In this document: in pieces, positions 1 through 52,867 of the stretch
Position numbering within the stretch: position 1 is the stretch's first letter
How the letters are laid out: each line of letters opens with the position of its first letter
Assembly (NCBI GenBank): GCA_030765335.1
Contig: JAVCCU010000016.1
Coordinates: 1 to 61,829, forward strand
Length of the DNA stretch: 61,829 bases
DNA from: Candidatus Kaelpia aquatica
GTDB lineage: Bacteria > Omnitrophota > Gorgyraeia > Kaelpiales > Kaelpiaceae
Direction of reading: 5' to 3'
Notes under the pieces: model-generated
The model's database searches: none
Told to the model about the DNA's origin: nothing
What the model saw: only the letters and a program-made list of their open reading frames with translations
Position numbers and translations under genes: made by a program

Positions 1-689
1 CCATCTAGGTCGATTCTAATCCACTGCTTAGGTAGAGTATGCCCTGAAGATCCTATCTGATCATATAATTCCCAGGCTGAATCAGGTACATGATAAGGTA
101 CTTCCAATATTATGTTTTTAGACATTCGCCCATCATCAACGTCTGTTGTGTCATTGCTCATATTAAACCCTGCTCTTTCAAACGCATTGGAGAAAACCAA
201 AAATTCTTCTAAGTGAATAAAAAAGTCTCTATTCTCTTGCCATGGAAATCCACCTGAGCCTTCTGCGGATATAAAATAAATACCTTTGCCATCCTCTGAA
301 GGAGCCAAAGCAGGAGTAATATGATTATAGCTATACCTACCAGTCTCAACAAAGTATTCATCTAGCAGCTGTATGACAATATACTTATAAAAAATAGAGC
401 TATCTCCGCTTGTTAATCTCTTCTCTCTCATCATTAATGGCCGATTAAGAGTCTGCTCCCATAGCTCCCTAATTTCTGCAACATGTGCAACCCAGGCACC
501 TTCAGGCCATCCCCCTGCTTCCTCAATTGCCCTCTCTATTTCAGATGCAGTAAGTAAAGTAAATCCACCTGTCTTTATCCTGCGCAAAGAAAAGCTATAG
601 TCAATTTGATCCAATATAGAAAAGTTATTTTGATTTATAAATAAAAATATTGCTAAAAATATCAAAATACAAAAATACTTTTTAAACAT
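1..689 (-). CDS. Exported hypothetical protein, 3' end runs off the window (at least 229 aa); possible kinase-like fold
   Basis: Hand translation from ATG at 689 (SD GAGGTG upstream) is open to base 1: MFKKYFCILIFLAIFLFINQNN...FSLRRIK...DDGRMSKNII...WIRIDLDG. Absent from the ORF track because there is no stop codon in the window. Confidence 0.85.
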   Translation of the reverse strand, partial: MFKKYFCILIFLAIFLFINQNNFSILDQIDYSFSLRRIKTGGFTLLTASEIERAIEEAGGWPEGAWVAHVAEIRELWEQTLNRPLMMREKRLTSGDSSIFYKYIVIQLLDEYFVETGRYSYNHITPALAPSEDGKGIYFISAEGSGGFPWQENRDFFIHLEEFLVFSNAFERAGFNMSNDTTDVDDGRMSKNIILEVPYHVPDSAWELYDQIGSSGHTLPKQWIRIDLD

Positions 690-795: not shown

Positions 796-3375
796 CTATT
801 GAGAAGTTCTTTCTATAGAAATAATTTTGACTCCGGGATAGAAAGATGCTAAATCAGACCAAATAACATCTAAGGCTTCTGTTGAAGCTATAATTCTTAA
901 AAAATGTTGAAACGAATCATAATCTCCATACTCATCTGTTAAATATCTCTGATTCTGTATAAAATTAAGTGAATTATTATTCATTTGTGCATATAACAAA
1001 TAAAGAAGTACATCTTCATAATTTTCAACAATCCTGAAACCTTCTTCATTTTCAATACTTCGAAGGTTTAGGAGCATACTGTCAAATATACCTTGAGTTT
1101 GAATATCGCCAGGCAAAGTCAACTCAGCTATCTCCCTATCTATTGTTTCTATTAGAGAACTGATACCCGCTTCCGTCTCACTATCAGAGCCCAATTCACT
1201 TAGACGCGTTTCCAAATCCTCTTTAGTTATTTTTAGCTGAATTATTTTTCTCTGAGTAGATCTACCTCTTACTTCTGATTCATAAAGAAGATCTCTTCTT
1301 ACAGAATCTATAATTCCCGCACCTTCTAATCGATCAATAGTATTTCTAGGGTAGAAAGCTAGAGAAGAAACATCCTCGTCAATTCTATGCATAAACTCCC
1401 GTAACCCCGTAGCAGTTAACCCGCCGTATCTTTCCATCAACTCACTAGAAAGTTCTCCTAAACTGCCCCGGACACCTACTGTTTGAGAGTTGAAATATCG
1501 TTTAAAGTTTGAAAAATCACTCAAAATAGTCATGATATTTCTCATGGGGATCAACTTCGGAGCGTAATCGCCAGCATAGTCATATTGTGAAGTTATATCC
1601 AGTGTAATCGGAAAAACCTGGGATATAAAATCCATATTTACAGCATGGTATATTGCTCCAAAATGACGTAACAACCTTGCTGTCATCGCCAGGTTATCTC
1701 TTAGAAAACCGGCATCAGCTATTTGGATTGAACCATTATCTGTAAGATTAGTAAGCATATTCTCAAGACATGCTGCTGCACCCACATCCAAGCTGAATCT
1801 ACCTTCATATCCCGAATGTAAAATACCCTCAATATACCTGCTGTGATCAATTTGACTTAAATTTTCTATCGGCCTTAATCTTTCAACAAATTTAATCCGC
1901 TGGAAAAATTTCTTGCCTAACTTTTGCAATAAAGCAATGTCCTGCGTCTGAATAGCAAGTTTTATCTCCTCAAGGCTATGGCCTTCAATCACTTCATCTT
2001 CTTTCATGTCAACATACATCCTTGCTTCAACTTCATAGACTATACCATCTCTAATCTCGATTATCTTGGTAGGTAAAGAGTTTAAAAGCAGGTTAGACCT
2101 AATCAGCAATGCCGGCTCTACACCTGCTAAGATTTCGGGATTTAAAGCATCGGCTTGTTTAATCTCTACTCTATCTCTATGCGCTGCTAAATGAGGTGAA
2201 TTTGACAAGTTCTCAACAACAGCCTGAGAATAATCAAGCAAAACATAGGTTATTCTTTCGTAATACGAAGTACCTTTCTCACCATCGAGCTCTTTCATCC
2301 TCGTCAAAAATTCAGCTGCCGAACAACCATCCCCTGCCCCCCATTCTTGAACAACGATATTTTCCGGCAATTGACCAACGAAATCCATCTCTTCTAATTT
2401 GCCATAAAAATCTTCTGCACTCCTTCTTGCACATCCAGGCTCTAAAGTCATCTGCTTATCAATAACACCAAATGCATTGGCACCAAAAGCCCCATAGTAT
2501 AATGTATTCATTAAATTTAAAAAGCTTCCTTCCTGATCTAATGATGAAAAATCACCTACATATTGATAGTCTGAAACACCAGAGCTTGCTGCATTAATCT
2601 CTGATTCATTTTCTAATTTGACCTCAAATGGAATGTCTTCACCGTGACGCTGTAATCTAATTGTGCCACTACCTCCTATGCCTCTCATTTTAGAATCTAG
2701 TTCTTCAAAATATCTTTTATGTGCTAAGGCACAATCAAGACCCATGTTTTCTTCTCCGTCCATTAAAAGATTTTCCAGACTCGCCCTAAAAACTTTTGTA
2801 GTTTCATAAAAATAATCATAAGTTGGAACAAATACTAACCCATCTATATTAGAAATTTGAAGTGTTTTTATATCCATCTCTACATCTATGAACCCGCCGA
2901 TTCTAAAGGATAGCTTTTCTCCATCCGAAGATATGTTTCCAAGTTTCAAGAATCCAGAGGCTAAATTAGAACTTAAATATTCCACTAAAGGTTGATGAGA
3001 ATCATTTTTCCACTGCTCCGTAAGTCTTGCAATCTGATATAAACTTTCAATCAAAATATCAAATTCACCGGCAACTAATGATTTAGGCTGAATACTTTGA
3101 CCGCTCAAAGCGCCTCTATCCGCTCTTATTATCTCAACCGCAGGCAGCAAATTGCCAATCTTAATCTCAGCGCGATCTGCTCCAGTGCCTAAAATAGGAG
3201 ACAAAGTAGCCCCCTCTTCCAATTGTTTCCTGATATCATCACAAGAAATTCCTGCAGGCAAACTAACAACACGTCTTAAAGAAATATCGCTAACTGAGAA
3301 TATAAAAACATTTAGTAAATTGAAAGTTAAAATAACAAAGCAGATAGATATCCAACATGTTTTTTTCATTTCCAT
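796..3375 (-). CDS. Large exported protein with a central MidA/NDUFAF7-like class I SAM-dependent methyltransferase domain
   Basis: Likely start is ATG 3375 (MEMKK, after SD GAGGGTG) rather than 3420. Basic plus hydrophobic N-terminus; motifs QEWGAGDG, YVLLDYS, QADAL, RSNLLLNSLP, IADAGF. Confidence 0.7.
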   Translation of the reverse strand: MEMKKTCWISICFVILTFNLLNVFIFSVSDISLRRVVSLPAGISCDDIRKQLEEGATLSPILGTGADRAEIKIGNLLPAVEIIRADRGALSGQSIQPKSLVAGEFDILIESLYQIARLTEQWKNDSHQPLVEYLSSNLASGFLKLGNISSDGEKLSFRIGGFIDVEMDIKTLQISNIDGLVFVPTYDYFYETTKVFRASLENLLMDGEENMGLDCALAHKRYFEELDSKMRGIGGSGTIRLQRHGEDIPFEVKLENESEINAASSGVSDYQYVGDFSSLDQEGSFLNLMNTLYYGAFGANAFGVIDKQMTLEPGCARRSAEDFYGKLEEMDFVGQLPENIVVQEWGAGDGCSAAEFLTRMKELDGEKGTSYYERITYVLLDYSQAVVENLSNSPHLAAHRDRVEIKQADALNPEILAGVEPALLIRSNLLLNSLPTKIIEIRDGIVYEVEARMYVDMKEDEVIEGHSLEEIKLAIQTQDIALLQKLGKKFFQRIKFVERLRPIENLSQIDHSRYIEGILHSGYEGRFSLDVGAAACLENMLTNLTDNGSIQIADAGFLRDNLAMTARLLRHFGAIYHAVNMDFISQVFPITLDITSQYDYAGDYAPKLIPMRNIMTILSDFSNFKRYFNSQTVGVRGSLGELSSELMERYGGLTATGLREFMHRIDEDVSSLAFYPRNTIDRLEGAGIIDSVRRDLLYESEVRGRSTQRKIIQLKITKEDLETRLSELGSDSETEAGISSLIETIDREIAELTLPGDIQTQGIFDSMLLNLRSIENEEGFRIVENYEDVLLYLLYAQMNNNSLNFIQNQRYLTDEYGDYDSFQHFLRIIASTEALDVIWSDLASFYPGVKIISIERTSQ

Positions 3376-3623
3376 ACCCAACACACCCTCTTTAATAAAT
3401 ATACCATATTTATACAGCAAACATAGGTTTTAAATAAAAAAATAAAACTTGATGAAATTTAATACAGGACTTTTCATATTCTATCTGATTGATTTTTGGC
3501 TTCCTAAGTGATCTTACCTCCCCCATCAACACCTTAATAAGCCAAGATACTATACGCGGAACTGGTCAAAAGATTGCATGACAACTAACATATTAATATG
3601 CTGCATTAAATAACCGCTGCTTT

Positions 3624-5138
3624 CTATTTAATATTGCGTGCACCAGGTAAGATAGCCTCTGTTACCTTTGGTAAATACCCGAAAATATTTTTATATATCT
3701 CATTATATTTATCCTTGCCTCCGATCAGCGCAAAGGTCAAGGGCATGACTTGCTTTGCCTGCTTGCTCATTGCGCAAGAGATGTTTTGGATGTCCCATTG
3801 CGCATGAACATCTTCCCTTAATCGTGAGATATGATACAATTCGCGAGCATTAACCCGTATCAATACACGCTTTCTGTGAGCATTAGTTAAAATATAGGGC
3901 GCAGCTTGCGGGTTTTCGTTCCTTATCTTGTTATATACATCGTTGGTTTCATCAGCGATTTTTTGAAAATACTTATCCATACCAATCTCTTTTATAGATT
4001 CAGGAATTGTCAATCCTAAGTCTATATCATAAGGTTGTGCTGTAATCGTTGACATGCGGTGCCGTTTCAGTTGTCCGAAACAGGCAGCAGATAATACGAT
4101 GTTAAACGAGAGATTTACATATTCAAATTCACGGGGCATAGAGTCGTAAAATTGCATATTACCCCAAGTTGTCTTAAAAACCTCTTTCTGCTCCTCTTTT
4201 GAAAGATTTTCAATAAATGATCGACATTCTTCATAAGGTAGATTCGAGGATACATGTAAAAGACTTGCCGCGATAACCTGATCTGCTTTTTCTGTAAATT
4301 CTACTAATCGCACCTCTTCTTCTCTATCAACTGCTATAGATTGAGCAGCTAAATCAATCATCTTATTGGCAAGTTTTTTAAGATCAGGATAGGTTTTACT
4401 ATCTAAGTCATTAGCCTCATGAAAAATGATGACAGACGGTGCTACATCAGCAACGCATTTATACATAGCCTTCCCAAGCTGACGTATCTCAGCTAAGGGA
4501 TGGGATGCAAATCTACGGAGCAAGAGCTCTAAGTTGCGAGCATTTATAGTCTGTCCAACTTGCGACTCTGTCGCTAAAGCTGTAATATAACGAGCATCTT
4601 CTTTAGCCCAGCCTTCAAGCAGGTTATGATTTTTGGGATTTTTCGCAAGATCAGCATGTTTTTTAAAAACATGCTCTTTGAGTTTCTCAAGGAGCTCAAA
4701 ATACGCGTTATTCTGCCGATGAATCATATCAATAAATACGCCCTCCAAAGATGTTTGCTTAATTTCATCAGGAATAACGAAATCATTATCAAGTGTGATA
4801 TAACGCTGAGATTTCTCCGTATAAGAACATAATCGAAATTTCTCTAGTTCTTCCATGGCAAAACGCGAAACACCCAGAATATCCAGATTAAACACAGCGT
4901 GTTCAGCTACAGAATGATGTCCCATCTTAAATATAATGGCTGAATTAGAACGCCTGGCCTGTTCGACTTCCCCTCTGGCGTCTACTCTTATCTCATTAAT
5001 CGGCCGAGAATCCCGACTTATACGGGCATAAGCTGCAGAGAGCACTTCAGGCGTCAAATCTTCGCGCTCAGTCCCCTTCCCTTTAAGTTCACTTAAGACC
5101 CCTGCATCTACATTATACCCAGCTAAATAAATCTTCAT
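3624..5138 (-). CDS. thyX: FAD-dependent thymidylate synthase, tandem two-domain type
   Basis: N-domain GHHSVAEH and SYTEKSQRY; C-domain QLKRHRMS and ELYHISRLR; 504 aa is about twice a single-domain ThyX. Confidence 0.85.
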   Translation of the reverse strand: MKIYLAGYNVDAGVLSELKGKGTEREDLTPEVLSAAYARISRDSRPINEIRVDARGEVEQARRSNSAIIFKMGHHSVAEHAVFNLDILGVSRFAMEELEKFRLCSYTEKSQRYITLDNDFVIPDEIKQTSLEGVFIDMIHRQNNAYFELLEKLKEHVFKKHADLAKNPKNHNLLEGWAKEDARYITALATESQVGQTINARNLELLLRRFASHPLAEIRQLGKAMYKCVADVAPSVIIFHEANDLDSKTYPDLKKLANKMIDLAAQSIAVDREEEVRLVEFTEKADQVIAASLLHVSSNLPYEECRSFIENLSKEEQKEVFKTTWGNMQFYDSMPREFEYVNLSFNIVLSAACFGQLKRHRMSTITAQPYDIDLGLTIPESIKEIGMDKYFQKIADETNDVYNKIRNENPQAAPYILTNAHRKRVLIRVNARELYHISRLREDVHAQWDIQNISCAMSKQAKQVMPLTFALIGGKDKYNEIYKNIFGYLPKVTEAILPGARNIK

Positions 5139-5279: not shown

Positions 5280-6365
5280 CTATCTGTCAAATAGATACTT
5301 AGTTCTCAAGCATACTCTCACCAGCATAAGCATAACGGGTACTTCAATCAAAACCCCAACAACAGTGGCAAGAGAAGCACCTGATGATAAGCCGAACAAC
5401 ATTGCAGAGGTTGCTATCGCAACTTCGAAATGGTTGCTTGCTCCAATCAAAGCTGATGGAGCAGCATCGCGATACCCTAACTTTAACCATCTCGCCATTG
5501 CATATGTTAAAGCAAATATAACACAGGTTTGAATAAAAAGAGGTATCGCTATCAGAAAAATAACTTGGGGTTGATTGACAATAAGCTCTCCCTTAAAACA
5601 AAACATGAGGATCAATGTAATAAGCAGCGCAAAGATTGAAATCGGCGTTAAACGATGAATAAATTTCTCCTTGAACCATTTAAATCCTTTCTTGGCAATA
5701 ATCCATTTGCGTGATTGATACCCCAAGAAAAGAGGCAACCCCACATATATTACAACTGATAAAACTATGGTCTGCCAGGGAATAGGCATCTTATTTACAC
5801 CCAAGAGCCATCCGCCAAGAGGAGCATAAAGAAAAAGCATTGCCAAAGAATTAATTGCTACCATAACAAGGGTATGACCATCATTTCCTTTTGATAAATG
5901 CCCCCATATAAGGACCATTGCGGTGCAAGGTGCAATTCCTAATAAAATACATCCTGAAATATAAGACCTGTATAACTCTACCTGCTGCCCTCCTTTAACA
6001 ATCTCTACGCCGGGAAGCCATCCTTTAAATAAAACTCCCAGAAAAAGAGTAGCTATCGCAAACATGGTAAAGGGCTTAATACACCAGTTAACAAACAGAG
6101 TAAGAATAACTGGTTTTGGCGTTTTCCCGGCTTTAATGACCTCGGTGAAGTCAACTTTTACCATAATAGGATAGATCATGAAAAAAAGACATATTGCAAT
6201 AGGAATAGATACCTGATAAATCGAAAATCGATCAAGCGTTACCGCCACATTAGGAAACAGCTTTCCAAGTAGAATACCTGTACCAATACATCCTATAACC
6301 CATAGAGTTAAATGCTTCTCAAAAAAACTTAACCTGCGTTGTTTCCCATGAATAGCATGCTCCAT
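5280..6365 (-). CDS. acr3: Acr3 arsenite efflux transporter
   Basis: [38 protein letters not shown] and [10 protein letters not shown] are Acr3 signatures. Confidence 0.95.
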
Positions 6366-6385
6366 ATTTCAACACCTTCTTATAA

Positions 6386-7075
6386 CTACATAAAACTGCT
6401 GATATGAGTCCAGATAAAATAAATGCCTGCTAGAATAAATATTATCCCGGTAGTTTTTCTTGTATGTTTTTCAAACATTGCCATCTTATTAAACCAATGG
6501 GACAATGTAGAAATTCCAAAAGCTATTCCAAAAGAAAAGACCAATACAGGTAGGCCTGTTCCTATTCCATAGATAAGAGGCAATACAACCCCATAAGTAT
6601 TATTCAAAGATAACGGAATTAAACTTCCAAAGAAAAGAGCAGCAGATATTGGACAAAATGCAAGCGCAAATAACATTCCAAGAACAAAAGACCCTTTCAA
6701 TCCGCCTTGAGCCAAAGACTCTTGTTTTTGCTTTGAAATAGAGAGTCCTGAAAAATTAAGACGTATGATATTAAGCAAGAACAATCCGACAATTACCAAA
6801 ACAGGGCCTAAAATTTTATTCATATACTTCTGGAGAAAATTTGCAATAAAAGGAATGCTCACAAGAGATGCAATAATGATTACCCCTAATACAGCGTATG
6901 CAATCATTCTTCCAAAAGTATACATTATGCCTGCAAAAAGCACTGCTTTAGGATGATTAATCTTCTTTGAAAGAAAAGAGACAGCTGCGATGTTTGTTGC
7001 TAAAGGACATGGACTTATTGATGTAAGCACACCAAGCCAGAGAGCAGAGCCAAAGACAAGTAGAATCTCAATCAT
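6386..7075 (-). CDS. arsG: ArsG-like / CcdA-DsbD-family membrane protein
   Basis: LWLGVLTSISPCPLATNIAA and LAFCPISAALFFG (two membrane Cys-Pro motifs); lies in the arsenic cluster. Confidence 0.65.
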   Translation of the reverse strand: MIEILLVFGSALWLGVLTSISPCPLATNIAAVSFLSKKINHPKAVLFAGIMYTFGRMIAYAVLGVIIIASLVSIPFIANFLQKYMNKILGPVLVIVGLFLLNIIRLNFSGLSISKQKQESLAQGGLKGSFVLGMLFALAFCPISAALFFGSLIPLSLNNTYGVVLPLIYGIGTGLPVLVFSFGIAFGISTLSHWFNKMAMFEKHTRKTTGIIFILAGIYFIWTHISSFM

Positions 7076-7503
7076 TCTATCTCCTTAAGAAGAGTTTTGA
7101 TTTCGCTTTTGACATAATTAGCATACTTTTCCTTGTTTCTCACATATTCCCAAATTTTGACAAGATTTTCATGCTTCACCTCTTCTCCATTTTTTACTAA
7201 TGATAAGATTAAAGCTCTTGAATAAAGCTTATAGTCGTTGACAAAATGCTCATTACTTTCCTCCTCAACGTTTACAGTTTTAAAGACAAGGACGCCTTTA
7301 TCCAGTTCGTCTTTAAAATTATTATAAATAGCCTCTTTGGCATACTGTTCTAAGTTGTGACAGGTACGACATCGAACATTTCCATAAAAATAGTAAGCAA
7401 TGAGCTGGGTGTTTTCATCTTGCATACTTTCACCAGCAATAGCAATAGCTGAAATCTGAAAAAAAGCTATGACCGTAAGTAAAACTATTATTGTTTTAAC
7501 CAT
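7072..7503 (-). CDS. arsF: ArsF-like exported thioredoxin-fold protein
   Basis: Signal peptide; YYFYGNVRCRTC motif; overlaps the start of the arsG-like gene. Confidence 0.6.
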   Translation of the reverse strand: MVKTIIVLLTVIAFFQISAIAIAGESMQDENTQLIAYYFYGNVRCRTCHNLEQYAKEAIYNNFKDELDKGVLVFKTVNVEEESNEHFVNDYKLYSRALILSLVKNGEEVKHENLVKIWEYVRNKEKYANYVKSEIKTLLKEIE

Positions 7504-7721
7504 TTTTTAATCTCCTCAGATGAAGGAATTTTTCCTGAAGTTTTTACCTCTCCATCTACAACTAAAGCCGGAGTCATCATAACCCCATAACCTGTTATCT
7601 TATCCATATCTTCAACTTTAACAACCTCTGCCATTACTCCAATCTCTTTAACAACTGCTTGAGTATTCTCATAAAGTATTTTACATTTAGGACAGCCCAT
7701 ACCGAGAATTTCAATCTTCAT
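7488..7721 (-). CDS. Small redox-active disulfide protein (MTH895/TM0996-type thioredoxin)
   Basis: MKIEILGMGCPKC...GVMMTPALVVDGEV, 77 aa. Confidence 0.9.
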   Translation of the reverse strand: MKIEILGMGCPKCKILYENTQAVVKEIGVMAEVVKVEDMDKITGYGVMMTPALVVDGEVKTSGKIPSSEEIKKWLKQ

Positions 7722-8896
7722 TTTACACCTCCCATTATTATGCCAAAGATAATTCCACTAATTGTTGCCATAATTACTACTAAACCAACATAAACAACTG
7801 TTTTTTTGTTTCCAATAACGCCTCGAATTACTAACATATTTGGTAAGCTCAAAGCAGGTCCGGCTAATAGTAAGGCCAAAGCCGGCCCTTTTCCCATCCC
7901 AGCTCCGAGGAGTCCCTGCAGGATAGGAACCTCAGTTAAAGTTGCAAAATACATAAATGCACCCACGATTGCTGCAAAGAAATTCGACAATAAAGAATTA
8001 CCGCCAACAGCTTTGGCAATTATCCATGATGGAATTAAACCCTCCTGGTTAGGCCGGCCAAGAAGAAATCCGGCTACTATTACACCTACAAGAAGTAAAG
8101 GCATTATCTGTTTAGCAAATGTCCATGAAGCAGATGTCCAGCTCCTAACTTCATCTTTCTTAAACCATCTGATAAGCATAATAACTACCAGAGCAAGCAA
8201 ACTGAATGAAAGATACCACTTAATGGAATAAATAAACGCCCACAAACCTGTCTTTATTTCCGGCTTTGCCCAATTCGCAAATACCAAAAATGCAACCATC
8301 AAAATAAAATACAACGCGTTCTGCCCAAGCGTCCGGCTCTTTACATCTTCATTAACAATAAGATCATCCGGTACATGGCGTGCTTTTTCTTCTTTAAGAA
8401 ATATAAGATGCATTAGAAGTCCAATTATAATACTGAAAAGTACTGCTCCTACAGCGCGGGCAAGTCCGAGTTCCCATCCTAAAATGCGGGCTGTCATTAT
8501 AATCGCTAATGCGTTAATAGCCGGACCTGAATAAAGAAATGCTATTGCAGGTCCAATCCCTGCACCTCTTTTATAGATACCTGAAAACAAAGGCAACACC
8601 GTGCAGGAACACACCGCTAATATAGTTCCTGAAATTGAAGCAACACTATAGGCAAGTACTTTATTAGCTTTTGCTCCGAAATACTTAATCACCGATGCTT
8701 GACTTACAAATACAGAGATTGCTCCCGCTATAAAGAATGCTGGAATCAAGCATAGCAATACATGTTCTCTTGCATACCATCGCACTAATGCAAGTGCTTC
8801 AAAAATTGGATTTCTAAAAGGCAGTGCTTCAACGGGTAAATAAAAGCATACTGAAAATATAGCCATCATTAACAAAAACTTCTTTCTCTCTTTCAT
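7718..8896 (-). CDS. DUF318 / ArsP-family permease
   Basis: LAVCSCTVLPLF, FLYSGPAIN, YFATLTEVPI and LLLAGPALSLP repeat motifs. Confidence 0.85.
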   Translation of the reverse strand: MKERKKFLLMMAIFSVCFYLPVEALPFRNPIFEALALVRWYAREHVLLCLIPAFFIAGAISVFVSQASVIKYFGAKANKVLAYSVASISGTILAVCSCTVLPLFSGIYKRGAGIGPAIAFLYSGPAINALAIIMTARILGWELGLARAVGAVLFSIIIGLLMHLIFLKEEKARHVPDDLIVNEDVKSRTLGQNALYFILMVAFLVFANWAKPEIKTGLWAFIYSIKWYLSFSLLALVVIMLIRWFKKDEVRSWTSASWTFAKQIMPLLLVGVIVAGFLLGRPNQEGLIPSWIIAKAVGGNSLLSNFFAAIVGAFMYFATLTEVPILQGLLGAGMGKGPALALLLAGPALSLPNMLVIRGVIGNKKTVVYVGLVVIMATISGIIFGIIMGGVK

Positions 8897-9198
8897 CTTT
8901 TACCCTTCTCTATAATTTTACAACACCCGCCCTCTATTTTTATTGCTTTAATATTTACTAAGGCATCGGCTATCTTTTTATGAGCCGACTCTAAGATGCG
9001 TGATATAGTTGAACGATGTACCTTCATAGTTTCGGCTATCTTTTCTTGATTAAAACCTTCTAAGTGAGCCAGTCTTATGGCCTCAAATTCATCAATAGTC
9101 ATATGCACACCTTCCAGCTTACTCAAAGGTTTACACTGCGGCCGAAAGCAACGCTCTTCTGGAGCACACTTGACCCATCTTGTTTTTTTAGGTCTCAT
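8893..9198 (-). CDS. DUF134 family DNA-binding protein, putative regulator of the arsenic cluster
   Basis: MRPKKTR.V, EFEAIRLAHLEG, HTH NQEKIAETMKVHRSTISRIL, KIADAL..KAIKIEGG. Confidence 0.9.
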   Translation of the reverse strand: MRPKKTRWVKCAPEERCFRPQCKPLSKLEGVHMTIDEFEAIRLAHLEGFNQEKIAETMKVHRSTISRILESAHKKIADALVNIKAIKIEGGCCKIIEKGKR

Positions 9199-10138: not shown

Positions 10139-10564
10139 TTAAAGATCTATCTCATTAAACCATGCTCCGTGCAGGTTGCATAGATCCACCGCTGCGATCT
10201 TTCCTACTCCAGACTTTAAATTAAGCGTAACAACAGGGTTAAGCTTATCTGGAGTAAACATTACTCTTGATATAAACTCTTGATCAATATAAAAATCAAC
10301 ATGTTGTATGCTATGTTCAGAAGTCATCGGATGCTGTATCTCTCCTATCTCTACATAGACATCCCAGCAAGACTCGCATTTTTTAATAACTGCTATGGCC
10401 GGAATATGTTTCTTTTCAGATTCTCCTACCTCGACCTTATCAACAGCGGTCTTGAGCGCATCGTTTTTTTCTTCAAAAGATTTTGCCCCGCAGACAGGAC
10501 ATTGTTGAGGTACAACACCGTTTATTGCCACATAACCGCATACTTTGCATACTATACCTTTCAT
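10139..10564 (-). CDS. Superoxide reductase with an N-terminal rubredoxin-like domain
   Basis: CKVCGY...CPVCG, then EKKHIP, HPMTSEH and CNLHG (4 His + Cys centre). Confidence 0.85.
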   Translation of the reverse strand: MKGIVCKVCGYVAINGVVPQQCPVCGAKSFEEKNDALKTAVDKVEVGESEKKHIPAIAVIKKCESCWDVYVEIGEIQHPMTSEHSIQHVDFYIDQEFISRVMFTPDKLNPVVTLNLKSGVGKIAAVDLCNLHGAWFNEIDL

Positions 10565-10583
10565 ATTGACCTCTCCTGTTTAA

Positions 10584-11159
10584 TTAATAGTTTTCACATA
10601 AAATTTCATAATAGGCCTGAGGGTGTGCACAAGCTGGGCATATCTCAATAGCCTCTTTTCCTTCATGCACATAACCACAGTTGCGACATTTCCACTTAAC
10701 AACCTCATCCCGCTTAAACACCTTACCGTCTTTTACGTTAGTAAGGAGCTTACGGTAGCGCTTCTCATGCTGCTCTTCAACTTCGGCTATCTCTTTAAAG
10801 GTATCAGCTACATCACTAAAACCTTCTTCTCTTGCTACTGCTTCAGCTTCCTTGTAAAGCTTTGTCCATTCCTCATTCTCGCCTTTTGCCGAAGCAAGAA
10901 GATTAGCTGCTGTATCGCCTATCACTCCTGCTGGAAAAGTCGTTACTATCTCTACGTCTCCCCCTTCAAGGTATTTGAAAAATTTCTTTGCATGCTCTTT
11001 TTCATTCTCTGCTGTCTCAATAAATATCGCTGCTATCTGCTCATAGCCGGCTTTTTTAGCAACCGACGCAAAATAGGTGTAGCGATTCCTTGCCTGAGAT
11101 TCACCAGCAAATGATGTGAGAAGATTTTTTTCTGTTTTTGTCCCTTTTAAATCTGCCAT
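10584..11159 (-). CDS. rbr: Rubrerythrin
   Basis: FAGESQARNRY, ENEKEHAK, EEQHEKRY, C-terminal CRNCGY...CPACAHP. Confidence 0.97.
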   Translation of the reverse strand: MADLKGTKTEKNLLTSFAGESQARNRYTYFASVAKKAGYEQIAAIFIETAENEKEHAKKFFKYLEGGDVEIVTTFPAGVIGDTAANLLASAKGENEEWTKLYKEAEAVAREEGFSDVADTFKEIAEVEEQHEKRYRKLLTNVKDGKVFKRDEVVKWKCRNCGYVHEGKEAIEICPACAHPQAYYEILCENY

Positions 11160-50849: not shown

Positions 50850-51527
50850 TCAGAGGACCTTGATATTAATATCTTTTAATTTTTTCTCAACATGATTGAA
50901 AACGTCTGCAGCACTCAGGTCTCCTGAGACCTTAAAGAGAATGCCTTGCTGATCATAAAAACTTACAATATCTTCAATCTGTTCTTTATATACTTCCAGC
51001 CGTCTTTTAATGGTGCTCTCCCTATCGTCCTCTCTCTGATAGAGCTCGCCACCGCATCTATCACATGCACCTTCTTCTTGGGCTGGAGAATATTTTATAT
51101 GATAATTAGCTCCGCAATGTATGCAGACACGCCTTCCAGTTAAACGTTCAAGTATAACATCAACGCTGGCGTCTAAATAAAGGACTAGGTCTATCTCTTT
51201 CTCTATCTCTTTAAGGAGAATATCTAAGCCTTTAGTCTGTTCCATAGTTCGGGGAAAACCATCTAAAACAAAACCGCTGCTTGCATCTTCTCCCGACAAT
51301 TTCATCCTTACCATCTTAAGTACAACCTCATCTGGAACCAGCTCTCCTTTTTTAACATACCCCTCAAGTTCATTTGCAATCTCGCTGCTGCCATCTTTAA
51401 GAATCTCTCTAAACATATCTCCTGTTGAGATATGGGGTATCTTATAATGACGTGCTATTAAGTCTGCCTGAGTACCTTTACCTGCACCCGGAGAACCCAT
51501 TATAATCATATTGAGATGCCCTATCAT
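50850..51527 (-). CDS. adk: Adenylate kinase (zinc LID)
   Basis: GSPGAGKGTQ, STGDMFR, DGFPR, CIHC...CDRC; ATGA overlap with secY. Confidence 0.97.
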   Translation of the reverse strand: MIGHLNMIIMGSPGAGKGTQADLIARHYKIPHISTGDMFREILKDGSSEIANELEGYVKKGELVPDEVVLKMVRMKLSGEDASSGFVLDGFPRTMEQTKGLDILLKEIEKEIDLVLYLDASVDVILERLTGRRVCIHCGANYHIKYSPAQEEGACDRCGGELYQREDDRESTIKRRLEVYKEQIEDIVSFYDQQGILFKVSGDLSAADVFNHVEKKLKDINIKVL

Positions 51528-52867
51528 CTTCTACCTCTGATACGCCCTTTTCTCATAAAACCTTCATACTGCCTCATAAGAAGCTGCGACTCAAGCTGCC
51601 TCTCTGTGTCTAATAATACACCTACGATAATAAGTATACCCGTACCTCCAAAGAAACTAGCCACTAAGAAAGGTATGTGCAGAATGGTGGATATAATCGA
51701 GGGTAATACTGCAATAATTGCAAGAAATACAGCTCCGGGCAAGATAATTCTAGTCATAATTTTATCTAAATATTCTGAAGTATTATTACCAGGCCTTACT
51801 CCAGGAATAAAACCGCCATGCTTTTTCATGTTCTCTGCAACATCTTTAGGATTAAAGACAAGGGCTGTATAAAAATAACTGAAGAATATAATAAAACCGC
51901 TATAAAGAACATAGTAAAGTATGCCTTGCTGGCTAAATAGTGAGACTATTTTAGCTACAGCCGGATTATTAATGAAACCTCCTATAGTAGCCGGGAACAT
52001 CAATACAGACTGCGCAAAGATAATAGGGATAACTCCAGCCTGATTTATCCTCAAAGGAATAAAGGTGCTCTGCCCGCCATATACACGCCTGCCTATAACA
52101 CGCCTTGCATATTGAACTGGTATTTTCCGCTGACCCTGAGTTATAAGAACCACTCCTACAACCACAAGAACAAGCATCGCAGCCATAATAACCAAAGTGA
52201 AAGGCTGAATCTGACCTCCAGTAGGAGAGAATGGATCCAGAAGAGAGTAAAGCTGTATCATAGCAGAAGGCAACCTCGATATTATACCAGCTGTTATTAT
52301 AAGTGAAATACCATTGCCGATACCGAACTCTGTTATCTGTTCTCCTAGCCAAACTATAAACATAGTGCCTGTAACGAGAGTAAGAACAGCAGTAAACCTA
52401 AAGCTCCAACCAGGATTAAATACTATTTGATAACCCTGGAATGATTGAGGATTTTCCAGCCAGAGGCTTATAAAAAATGCCTGGAATAAAGTAATTATAA
52501 CCGTTAAGTACCTTGTATATTGATTGATCTTTTGCCTGCCGTTATCCTGATGAGCAACTCTCTCTAAGGCCGGAATAACAGGAGTAAGAACCTGTAATAT
52601 AATAGATGCAGAGATATAAGGCATGATACCTAAAGCAAAGATAGTCAACCTTTGTATGGCGCCACCACTAAACATATTTATCATTCCAAATAGAGTTCCC
52701 CCTGGTGTATCTGCAAGATTTTTAAAGAACTCAGATAAAGCCTGGCCATTAATACCTGGTGTAGGTATGTAAGAACCTATTCTATATACAGCGATAAGCG
52801 CTAAAGTTATTAGAATCTTACGCCGTAAATCCTTAATTTTAAAAGTGTTAGCTAATCCTCTAAACAT
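51524..52867 (-). CDS. secY: Preprotein translocase SecY
   Basis: FALGIMPYISASI, GIGNGISLII, AGVIPIIFA, GGFIPGVRPG. Confidence 0.98.
   Translation of the reverse strand: MFRGLANTFKIKDLRRKILITLALIAVYRIGSYIPTPGINGQALSEFFKNLADTPGGTLFGMINMFSGGAIQRLTIFALGIMPYISASIILQVLTPVIPALERVAHQDNGRQKINQYTRYLTVIITLFQAFFISLWLENPQSFQGYQIVFNPGWSFRFTAVLTLVTGTMFIVWLGEQITEFGIGNGISLIITAGIISRLPSAMIQLYSLLDPFSPTGGQIQPFTLVIMAAMLVLVVVGVVLITQGQRKIPVQYARRVIGRRVYGGQSTFIPLRINQAGVIPIIFAQSVLMFPATIGGFINNPAVAKIVSLFSQQGILYYVLYSGFIIFFSYFYTALVFNPKDVAENMKKHGGFIPGVRPGNNTSEYLDKIMTRIILPGAVFLAIIAVLPSIISTILHIPFLVASFFGGTGILIIVGVLLDTERQLESQLLMRQYEGFMRKGRIRGRR

Follow-up and report, generated by a model that had tools for sequence, protein, structure and literature searches.

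Introduction

Methyltransferases of the MidA/NDUFAF7 type are known as cytoplasmic or mitochondrial enzymes. To our knowledge, arginine methylation has been established for mitochondrial members of this group only, and the sole established substrate is an arginine of the complex I subunit NDUFS2. Here we describe a gene at positions 799–3375, on the minus strand, of a 61,829-nucleotide stretch of DNA from Candidatus Kaelpia aquatica (Omnitrophota; NCBI GenBank assembly GCA_030765335.1, contig JAVCCU010000016.1), which we refer to in full as the window. The encoded protein contains a divergent core of the MidA/COG1565 type of class I S-adenosylmethionine (SAM) methyltransferases, set between two flanking regions and placed behind a leader that is common to 42–53 proteins of the genome. 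A preliminary description of the same DNA, made from the sequence alone, had read the gene as a MidA-like domain inside a signal-peptide protein, possibly an exported effector methylase. As detailed below, the domain stands, and the leader proves to be of a kind of its own.

The second described system that bears on this gene is the set of giant proteins found in the same phylum ('Archaeovorins'; West-Roberts et al. 2023, 10.1101/2023.11.21.568195; 10.64898/2026.06.07.730766). According to the portions of these two surveys that we consulted, the giant proteins recurrently contain methyltransferase, HATPase, GNAT, HAD, HD and sugar-phosphate enzyme domains, and both surveys call the localisation of these domains ambiguous. 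The passages searched in the two papers describe no MidA-type module, no Arg-Arg tag of the kind reported below and no stand-alone set of tagged enzymes. So far as the same passages allow a comparison, the likeness is twofold: the methyltransferase module of our protein itself occurs inside such giant proteins, and the leader- or membrane-associated repertoire (methyltransferase, HATPase_c, GNAT, HD, PGM/PMM, aldolase and PPDK-like domains) is alike. The protein described here differs from them in being a free-standing product of 859 residues with its own leader.

Identification of a divergent MidA-type core

The open reading frame (ORF) at 796–3420 of the minus strand encodes the 859-residue protein, with the coding sequence at 799–3375 and the stop codon at 796–798; the call is supported by orthologues, 42–77% identical, in six protein clusters. 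The likeliest start is the ATG at 3375, which has a Shine-Dalgarno-like GAGGG 10 nucleotides to its 5' side, or else the next ATG at 3369, which corresponds to the point where the orthologues start. The product is strongly acidic (131 Asp plus Glu, 81 Lys plus Arg) and is built of three parts: a family-specific N-domain, a class I SAM methyltransferase core of the MidA/COG1565 superfamily, and a helical C-terminal region.

The preliminary description had proposed a profile search against Methyltransf_28 as one check of the methyltransferase domain. That family (PF02636) is indeed the sole Pfam match of the protein (E = 0.0019, 18.1 bits, residues 337–466), but the score falls below the gathering cut-off of 23.3 bits, as does the score of 20.5 bits that the gene receives in a six-frame Pfam scan of the whole genome. 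The same genome scan found no second PF02636-like gene. An NCBIfam search of the protein returned no family, and a sequence search of the PDB gave only weak matches, to a helical stretch of Lon protease (E = 0.011), and these we regard as fortuitous.

A firmer assignment came from the family as a whole. We aligned the six orthologue clusters into a profile (A1) and searched it against a library of 1.8 billion proteins, from which it retrieved 380. Among these relatives are proteins that pass the PF02636 cut-off: P0023 with 54.6 bits, P0038 with 45.7 and P0026 with 37.8. When the A1 profile was compared by hhalign with an alignment of relatives that includes these three (A4), the two matched with a probability of 100% and an E value of 2.9e-42 over 310 columns, corresponding to residues 276–589 of our protein. 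Cluster names of the distant relatives carry almost no taxonomy; one cluster is labelled Candidatus Riflemargulisbacteria. Structure prediction, the other check proposed in the preliminary description, pointed the same way. In a Foldseek search of the AlphaFold model against the PDB, ranks 1–6 were all COG1565/MidA entries (4g67, 5zu0, 4f3n, 5ztz and chains A and B of 1zkd), with E values of 1.5e-5 to 3.2e-4 over 253–289 aligned columns; other methyltransferases followed only from E = 0.013, about 40-fold or more weaker.

Because the profile search, the profile–profile comparison and the fold search agree, the weak PF02636 match can be raised to a firm assignment: residues 276–589 (1609–2550, minus strand) are a real but divergent MidA/COG1565-type class I SAM methyltransferase. 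The absence of a SAM-binding fold is thereby ruled out. The interval of 1560–2550 originally given for the domain corresponds to residues 276–606 and nearly coincides with the region aligned by hhalign.

Conserved SAM-binding positions and a variant acceptor pocket

The four motifs on which the domain had first been recognised are all in frame, at residues 344–350 (EWGAGDG), 379–383 (LLDYS), 427–435 (SNLLLNSLP) and 552–557 (IADAGF). To place them we compared 25 superfamily members (A2) column by column. Motif I, the glycine-rich SAM-binding loop E-W-G-A-G-D-G (2326–2346, minus strand), is invariant within the family of our protein, and its G348 is invariant in all 25 members, as are G573 and D381 of the D-[FY]-S signature. 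The latter lies in the post-I motif L-L-D-Y-S (2227–2241, minus strand), and is presumably the acidic residue that contacts the SAM ribose in class I methyltransferases. Nearly invariant across the 25 are G346, D409 of motif III (Q-A-D, residues 407–409; 2149–2157, minus strand), D554 and N580. Judged from these columns, the positions predicted to bind SAM are kept: G346 and G348, D381 and D409, together with D554, G573 and N580.

The overall resemblance to MidA/NDUFAF7/COG1565 proteins (PF02636; PDB 5zu0, 5ztz, 4f3n, 4g67 and 1zkd), the best structural matches, thus extends from the class I SAM-methyltransferase fold to the order of the motifs: E-x-G-x-G-x-G, D-[FY]-S, x-D-A, a motif IV ending in L-P, D-x-G, and G..x..V-N-F. 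The differences are concentrated in two of these motifs. The first is motif IV (R-S-N-L-L-L-N-S-L-P, residues 426–435; 2071–2100, minus strand). It reads N-E-[LF]-x-D-[DA]-L-P in MidA/COG1565 proteins, and N-E-L-x-D-D-L-P in the relatives that pass PF02636, but N-L-L-L-N-S-L-P in every member of our family, so that Glu has become Leu and Asp-Asp has become Asn-Ser. The 25-sequence alignment confirms the earlier observation that the Glu and the Asp of SNELxD are replaced by Leu and Asn. The variants NLLLNSLP, NYLLNSLP and NSLLNSLP occur only in this clade and in its giant-protein relatives. The second is I-A-D-A-G-F (1705–1722, minus strand), the counterpart of the canonical (F/Y)-D-Y-G: D554 and G556 are retained, and the Tyr has become Ala in our protein, a position at which Ala, Thr or Gly replaces Tyr only within this family. 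Outside the motifs, our protein departs from MidA/COG1565 in its Pfam score, in an additional N-domain of 235 residues and C-terminal region of 270 residues, in its Arg-Arg-tagged leader, and in lacking a complex I context.

The acceptor site of class I methyltransferases takes its shape from the residues beyond strand 4. In our family R426, N428–P435, D554 and G556 are invariant among orthologues that are 42–77% identical. Invariance of the substituted motifs in divergent orthologues, together with retention of the SAM-binding positions, suggests a constrained but altered acceptor pocket, and hence a changed specificity, and not a site in decay. That motif IV lacks the Glu and both Asp residues argues against an arginine guanidinium as the acceptor, and the acceptor is therefore probably not the one used by NDUFAF7. 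A partner protein or metabolite of the co-tagged enzymes described below would be a likelier candidate. On this reading of the alignment, the protein-arginine chemistry of MidA/NDUFAF7 cannot simply be transferred to our protein.

A clade-specific leader with an Arg-Arg tag

The N-terminus had been described as a signal peptide. A hydrophobic leader with the n-, h- and c-type layout is present, but it is not an ordinary signal peptide. A basic n-region, MEMKKT, is followed by an uncharged hydrophobic segment of 20 residues (together residues 1–26; 3298–3375, minus strand), which the AlphaFold model renders as a helix at residues 4–24 and which is conserved in the family alignment in its hydrophobicity, not in its sequence. 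A possible, weak signal-peptidase site, S-V-S, occupies residues 27–29. Beyond it lies the sequence I-S-L-R-R-V (residues 31–36; 3268–3285, minus strand), continuing as S-L-R-R-V-V over residues 32–37, in which the two arginines R34 and R35 stand 5–6 residues past S-V-S. All family members keep R35, and the arginine pair is not followed by another hydrophobic stretch.

The same arrangement recurs through the genome. We collected all ORFs with a basic-plus-hydrophobic N-terminal start (n = 364) and looked for Arg-Arg (RR) in the 25 residues that follow the hydrophobic segment. The pair was found in 53 of the 364, compared with 15–20 in control windows further into the proteins, an enrichment of about 3-fold. 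Other basic pairs were not enriched (37 for KK against 42 in the control, 18 against 25 for RK, and 16 against 28 for KR). The flanks of the RR pair are also non-random in appearance among the 53 proteins: the preceding residue is Ala in 25 and Leu in 11, the following residue is Val, Ile or Thr in 40, and the one after that is Lys, Arg or His in 33. A stricter definition leaves 42 proteins, and we accordingly give the size of the class as 42–53. Their n-regions carry 2–3 Lys or Arg residues. Roughly every second leader has a c-region of textbook form, in which Pro, Ser or Asn and then A-x-A abut the RR pair (for example …SNPVYA|RRIN, …SNPADA|RRII and …RPCFA|RRVK), and this suggests cleavage by signal peptidase I. 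In the enzyme cargoes, our protein included, RR lies 5–15 residues beyond the hydrophobic segment.

Genes of the class are commonly adjacent, in runs of 2–5: five consecutive genes on contig C3, five on C15 and three on C20, with further runs on C18, C34, C44 and others. At least five genes (at C3 8530, C20 791 and C38 1203, and two short ORFs on C3 and C4) have a near-identical leader, M/LVQNM.NLKTKGI.LF..G..LFS.PA.ARR…, in front of different cargoes (GNAT, HATPase_c and unknown), which suggests exchange of leaders or recent duplication. We conclude that the N-terminus of the methyltransferase is a clade-specific leader, composed of a basic n-region, a hydrophobic segment and Arg-Arg-[V/I/T], that is common to 42–53 proteins of this genome.

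How does this leader compare with known targeting signals? Many members of the class share with Sec signal peptides a basic n-region, a hydrophobic h-region and a polar A-x-A c-region. In the methyltransferase itself the h-region is about 20 residues long, compared with the usual 7–15 of signals cut by signal peptidase I, and S-V-S at residues 27–29 is the possible site. The class as a whole differs from Sec substrates in having Arg-Arg at +1/+2, or up to about 15 residues past the presumed cleavage site, where ordinary Sec substrates avoid basic residues just past the cut. Signals of the twin-arginine translocation (Tat) pathway likewise have a pair of arginines as their specific element. The S/T-R-R-x-F-L-K motif of Tat precedes the h-region, whereas Arg-Arg follows it in our class, and a Tat signal is ruled out on that ground. 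TatC is encoded in the genome. A literature search combining 'Omnitrophota' and 'twin-arginine' found no paper.

A looser likeness, offered here purely as an analogy, is to the second-step export motifs of eukaryotic parasites, PEXEL (RxLxE/Q/D), TEXEL (RRLxx) and the oomycete RxLR, and to the secreted hexokinases of microsporidia (PMC6460350). The shared layout is a signal peptide followed, within a few to about 15 residues, by a short arginine motif, on enzymes that are otherwise cytosolic and in a host-dependent organism; the organisms and the machineries are unrelated.

Two further roles connected with the tag were considered. That the methyltransferase acts on the Arg-Arg tags of its co-tagged neighbours is unlikely, because the acidic arginine-binding residues are missing, because the module is also found behind leaders of another type (L-[AR]-P; see below), and because tagged GAPDH exists without the methyltransferase. 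A subtilase was looked at as a candidate processor of the tag. The genome has two S8 genes, neither of which adjoins the tagged clusters; the smaller one (C9 498–1427, plus strand; 309 residues) has an ordinary signal peptide without RR and is 29% identical to an S8 protein whose gene ends an RR-leader cluster in a relative (locus L003).

The tagged proteins form a second, acidic enzyme set

By Pfam, the cargoes behind the RR leader include a fusion of aldolase and PFK (FBA-PFK; 1,037 residues), a GAPDH of 869 residues, PGM/PMM, UDP-glucose pyrophosphorylase (UDPGP), an HD protein, 6-phosphogluconate dehydrogenase (6PGD), HATPase_c, a GNAT acetyltransferase, a second SAM methyltransferase (Methyltransf_25) and TPR proteins. 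A PEP-utiliser-like protein with an RR leader has a weak Pfam match under the cut-off. As predicted from these matches, the identifiable domains of the tagged proteins are nearly all cofactor-dependent and of a cytoplasmic type. The pairing of a SAM enzyme with an export-type signal thus belongs to a wider pattern and is not peculiar to this gene.

Two side observations belong with this inventory. A protein of 754 residues with Xre-type HTH_3 domains also has an RR leader (C23 47741–50005, minus strand), and a DNA-binding domain is hard to reconcile with the periplasm. In addition, the tagged GAPDH gene runs off the end of contig C20 (57498–60106, plus strand), and a C-terminal piece lies at the end of C18 (29278–29382, minus strand); the two contigs probably join into a cluster of GAPDH, aldolase/PFK fusion and PEP-utiliser-like genes that resembles the clusters of relatives.

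Since leaderless GAPDH, PFK and PGK genes are also present in the genome, the tagged enzymes amount to a second set. The two sets differ in composition. Median net acidity, (D+E−K−R) per residue, is 0.056 for the RR-leader proteins, compared with 0.019 for other proteins with a hydrophobic N-terminus (p = 4e-6) and 0.003 for the full set of ORFs with 250 or more residues (p = 2e-14); the value for the methyltransferase is 0.061. The same holds for pairs of paralogues: 0.068 for the long GAPDH and 0.018 for its housekeeping counterpart, and 0.065 for the long FBA-PFK compared with 0.015 and −0.003 for PFK. The higher acidity of RR-leader proteins is repeated in relatives. Median cysteine content is 0.60% in the RR class, 0.53% in other leader-bearing proteins and 0.85% on average in the genome, which places the RR class nearer to the leader-bearing proteins.

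Flanking domains and occurrence within giant proteins

The preliminary description had left the flanks of the core unassigned, and they remain without a family: residues 1–275 and 590–859 have no match in Pfam, NCBIfam or the PDB. When the N-terminal, core and C-terminal thirds were each compared by BLAST with every ORF of the genome, no paralogue was found. The N-domain (residues 40–275; 2551–3258, minus strand), modelled alone from a 10-sequence alignment, gave a mixed alpha/beta structure with a predicted local distance difference test score (pLDDT) of 74.9 and a predicted template modelling score (pTM) of 0.67; comparison of this model with PDB folds gave a best E value of 0.21, that is, no match.

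From about residue 90 onwards, the N-domain co-occurs with the methyltransferase core in giant proteins, with matches spanning profile positions 64–667. The A1 profile detects the methyltransferase module inside P0008 (5,040 residues), P0009 (3,503), P0011 (4,041) and P0012 (1,857) with E values of 1e-103 to 1e-163; P0012 aligns with residues 98–661 of our protein at 32% identity over 600 residues. The module is also present in loci L017–L019 and in an open frame of 23,636 residues in G035, a genome of another family. N-domain and methyltransferase together are thus a building block of Omnitrophota giant proteins from 1,857 to about 23,600 residues in length.

The C-terminal region (residues 590–859; 799–1608, minus strand) is all-helical. 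In the A1 alignment and profile matches, its first 70–130 residues or so are common to leaderless relatives of 480–615 residues, with profile matches reaching positions 650–717, and the match to P0013 covers positions 614–797. An insertion of about 50 residues (about 706–760) is found only in this species and in Ca. Saelkia. The last 100 residues or so, ending in …FYPGVKI, are family-specific, and a similar tail, FFPGLKVFTVR, is internal in the 3,503-residue P0009.

The giant proteins P0009, P0012, P0014, P0018 and P0019 have leaders too, with an L-[AR]-P-type motif and not RR (for example GNLRPRA, HLRTP and HLAPS). So does P0028, a stand-alone metagenomic protein of 541 residues that combines an L-[AR]-P-type leader with the canonical N-E-L-Y-D-D-L-P. 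The existence of P0028 and of giant proteins with the other leader type indicates that leader-tagged MidA-like enzymes arose, or were retagged, more than once.

Distribution and genomic neighbourhood

The genome (G000) comprises 1.34 Mb in 46 contigs at 98% completeness. A survey of 185,579 species, each represented by one genome, found the family at just seven loci, five of them labelled Omnitrophota and two in metagenome-assembled genomes labelled Planctomycetia/Planctomycetales (labels as given). Among named organisms, Candidatus Saelkia tenebricola (Omnitrophota) has the protein's nearest relative. A survey of 40 relatives found the gene in two further genera of the family to which this species belongs. 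In metagenomic reads the gene was found only in DNA from salt lakes; no RNA run contains it.

In the relatives that have the gene, its neighbours are an over-long GAPDH (about 800 residues), PFK (about 510–580), class II aldolase (about 630–730), PGK and an aminotransferase. Each of them begins with a basic n-region and a hydrophobic segment, and x-R-R-[V/A/I/…] comes a few residues later. Within such clusters of leader-tagged glycolytic paralogues, the methyltransferase gene is accessory.

Immediately downstream in the window is a gene with the same leader type, F-S-L-R-R-I-K, at 3–689 (minus strand), cut by the contig end. It continues at 51433–51774 (minus strand) of contig C16 to give a product of about 300 residues; with its C-terminus at the end of C16, we conclude that contigs C17 and C16 abut. 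A paralogue with an RR leader lies on C19 (89–928), and in Ca. Saelkia the orthologue lies 3' of the methyltransferase gene. The product has no Pfam or PDB family. Its domain matches residues 281–396 of P0012 (E = 3e-6), and since P0012 also contains the methyltransferase module, the two neighbouring genes are fused elsewhere. A D-x4-N … I-D-[FL]-D pattern in this product recalls small atypical kinases, which we mention as an impression only.

Upstream, at 3624–5138 (minus strand), lies a ThyX of 504 residues with two Thy1 stretches, that is, a tandem-duplicated flavin-dependent thymidylate synthase. The region 5280–9198 (minus strand) encodes an ACR3/SBF-type transporter, a DsbD-like membrane protein, an unknown protein of 143 residues, an ArsP-type permease and a DUF134/HTH regulator, and looks like an arsenic/redox resistance cluster. 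Rubrerythrin and desulfoferrodoxin genes follow this run at 10139–11159.

Where the enzyme may act

We favour an explanation in several steps. The enzyme would bind SAM and be catalytically active, on an acceptor other than arginine; its leader would bring it to the Sec translocon; and it would be translocated out of the cytoplasm along with the other tagged enzymes. The place where it works would then have to supply SAM, and would most plausibly be at or inside a host or prey cell. As a whole, the explanation of an active SAM methyltransferase that is led to Sec and exported with the tagged set is in our judgement evenly balanced between right and wrong. Export from the cytoplasm, taken singly, seems slightly the likelier outcome, delivery to a host or prey cell is on the whole unlikely, and we allow a slight chance for something other than export or a cytoplasm-facing anchor. 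Counted for export are the SPase-like c-regions in half of the class, the signal-peptide-type charges of the n-regions, the specificity for RR, the existence of leaderless paralogues and the acidic composition.

Several points weigh against this explanation. With respect to the core, its PF02636 score is below the gathering threshold; sequence-only searches of the PDB, whether made with the protein, with the family profile or with the canonical-like relative P0038, never reach a solved MidA structure; and the full-length AlphaFold model is moderate (pLDDT 67, pTM 0.39), with pLDDT of 70–92 over most of residues 310–410. With respect to the leader, an h-region of about 20 residues is enough to span the membrane, there is no clean A-x-A site, and Arg right after the signal peptide impedes Sec export in model bacteria. 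All recognisable cargo domains require SAM, ATP, NAD(P), UTP, acetyl-CoA or DNA, which are not expected in the periplasm. Finally, the survey of 40 relatives found no copy of the gene in the four other species of the genus, and none in G001 and G005, both of which have leader-tagged GAPDH; the methyltransferase is therefore not essential to the tagged system.

The length of the hydrophobic segment and the weak cleavage site bring forward the rival that fares best, that of a membrane-tethered cytoplasmic enzyme. Here the leader would be an uncleaved anchor with Arg-Arg at the cytoplasmic end of its helix, and the tagged enzymes would be arrayed along the cytoplasmic side of the membrane, with SAM, ATP and NAD at hand. 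The identifiable cargo, all of it cofactor-dependent and including HATPase_c and HTH_3 DNA-binding proteins, would then pose no difficulty. The literature on giant proteins, in the passages searched, leans in the same direction: methyltransferase, HATPase and GNAT modules have been read as compatible with an inner-membrane-anchored, cytoplasm-facing topology (10.64898/2026.06.07.730766), and West-Roberts et al. doubted the extracellular placement predicted for glycolytic domains (10.1101/2023.11.21.568195). The leaders themselves fit an anchor less well. Their n-regions, with 2–3 Lys or Arg, resemble those of true signal peptides, so that by charge balance an N-out/C-in orientation is not the favoured one; the helix breaker and A-x-A before RR in about half of them would be needless in a plain anchor; the enrichment of RR alone, and not of KK, RK or KR, is not that of a generic positive-inside charge; and the tagged proteins differ strongly in composition from leaderless paralogues of the same genome. 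We regard the anchor as a possible but doubtful alternative to export.

Beyond export itself lies the suggestion, made in the preliminary description, of an effector methyltransferase: after Sec export, a second step would read the Arg-Arg tag and deliver the enzyme into a host or prey cell, where it would methylate a foreign target with the victim's SAM. The architecture of the leader, the separate acidic class and the leaderless housekeeping paralogues favour the export on which this proposal depends, and a small genome of 1.34 Mb in a phylum with predatory and host-dependent members offers a setting for it. The patchy, accessory distribution of the gene is typical of effectors, and parasites provide a precedent for signal peptides on glycolytic enzymes, as in the microsporidian secreted hexokinases (PMC6460350). 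Yet the gene has no linked delivery machinery, neither a host nor a target can be named, and the module also sits mid-way in giant multi-domain proteins that are unlikely to be injected whole. We consider the effector role unlikely. Its boldest form, in which the Arg-Arg tag would be an undescribed bacterial sorting signal, read after Sec, that sends about 45 unusually acidic, cofactor-dependent enzymes (among them a second glycolytic series, kinase-like proteins, a GNAT and two SAM methyltransferases) into or onto the host or prey, with the MidA-like enzyme methylating a foreign target at the expense of the victim's SAM by a non-arginine chemistry that its N-L-L-L-N-S-L-P pocket would create, is less likely still.

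An improbable last alternative is that the core has lost catalysis through the changes in motif IV and DYG and serves as a SAM- or ligand-binding or scaffold domain in an assembly of tagged enzymes, like an assembly factor of the NDUFAF7/MidA kind; the family-wide replacement of the motif IV Glu and Asp and of the DYG Tyr, and the module's place within multi-enzyme giant proteins, would suit it, but the invariance of the substituted positions among the divergent orthologues and the retention of every SAM-binding position form a pattern of changed specificity, not of decay.

Significance

Whichever side of the membrane the enzyme occupies, the family departs from known MidA/NDUFAF7 proteins in a rebuilt acceptor pocket, in two extra domains and in a secretion-type leader. 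In addition, it ties a giant-protein module, here in free-standing form, to a set of leader-tagged enzymes that are not expected to work outside the cytoplasm. At 859 residues the protein is of a size that can be expressed, and it would thereby give a handle both on the location of tagged and giant-protein domains and on Arg-Arg as a possible new sorting signal. Were it true that the tagged enzymes reach another cell, ultra-small bacteria would be seen to interfere with metabolism and epigenetic state in a new way. The main value of the protein is as a tractable representative of an undescribed class of leader-tagged enzymes in the Omnitrophota.

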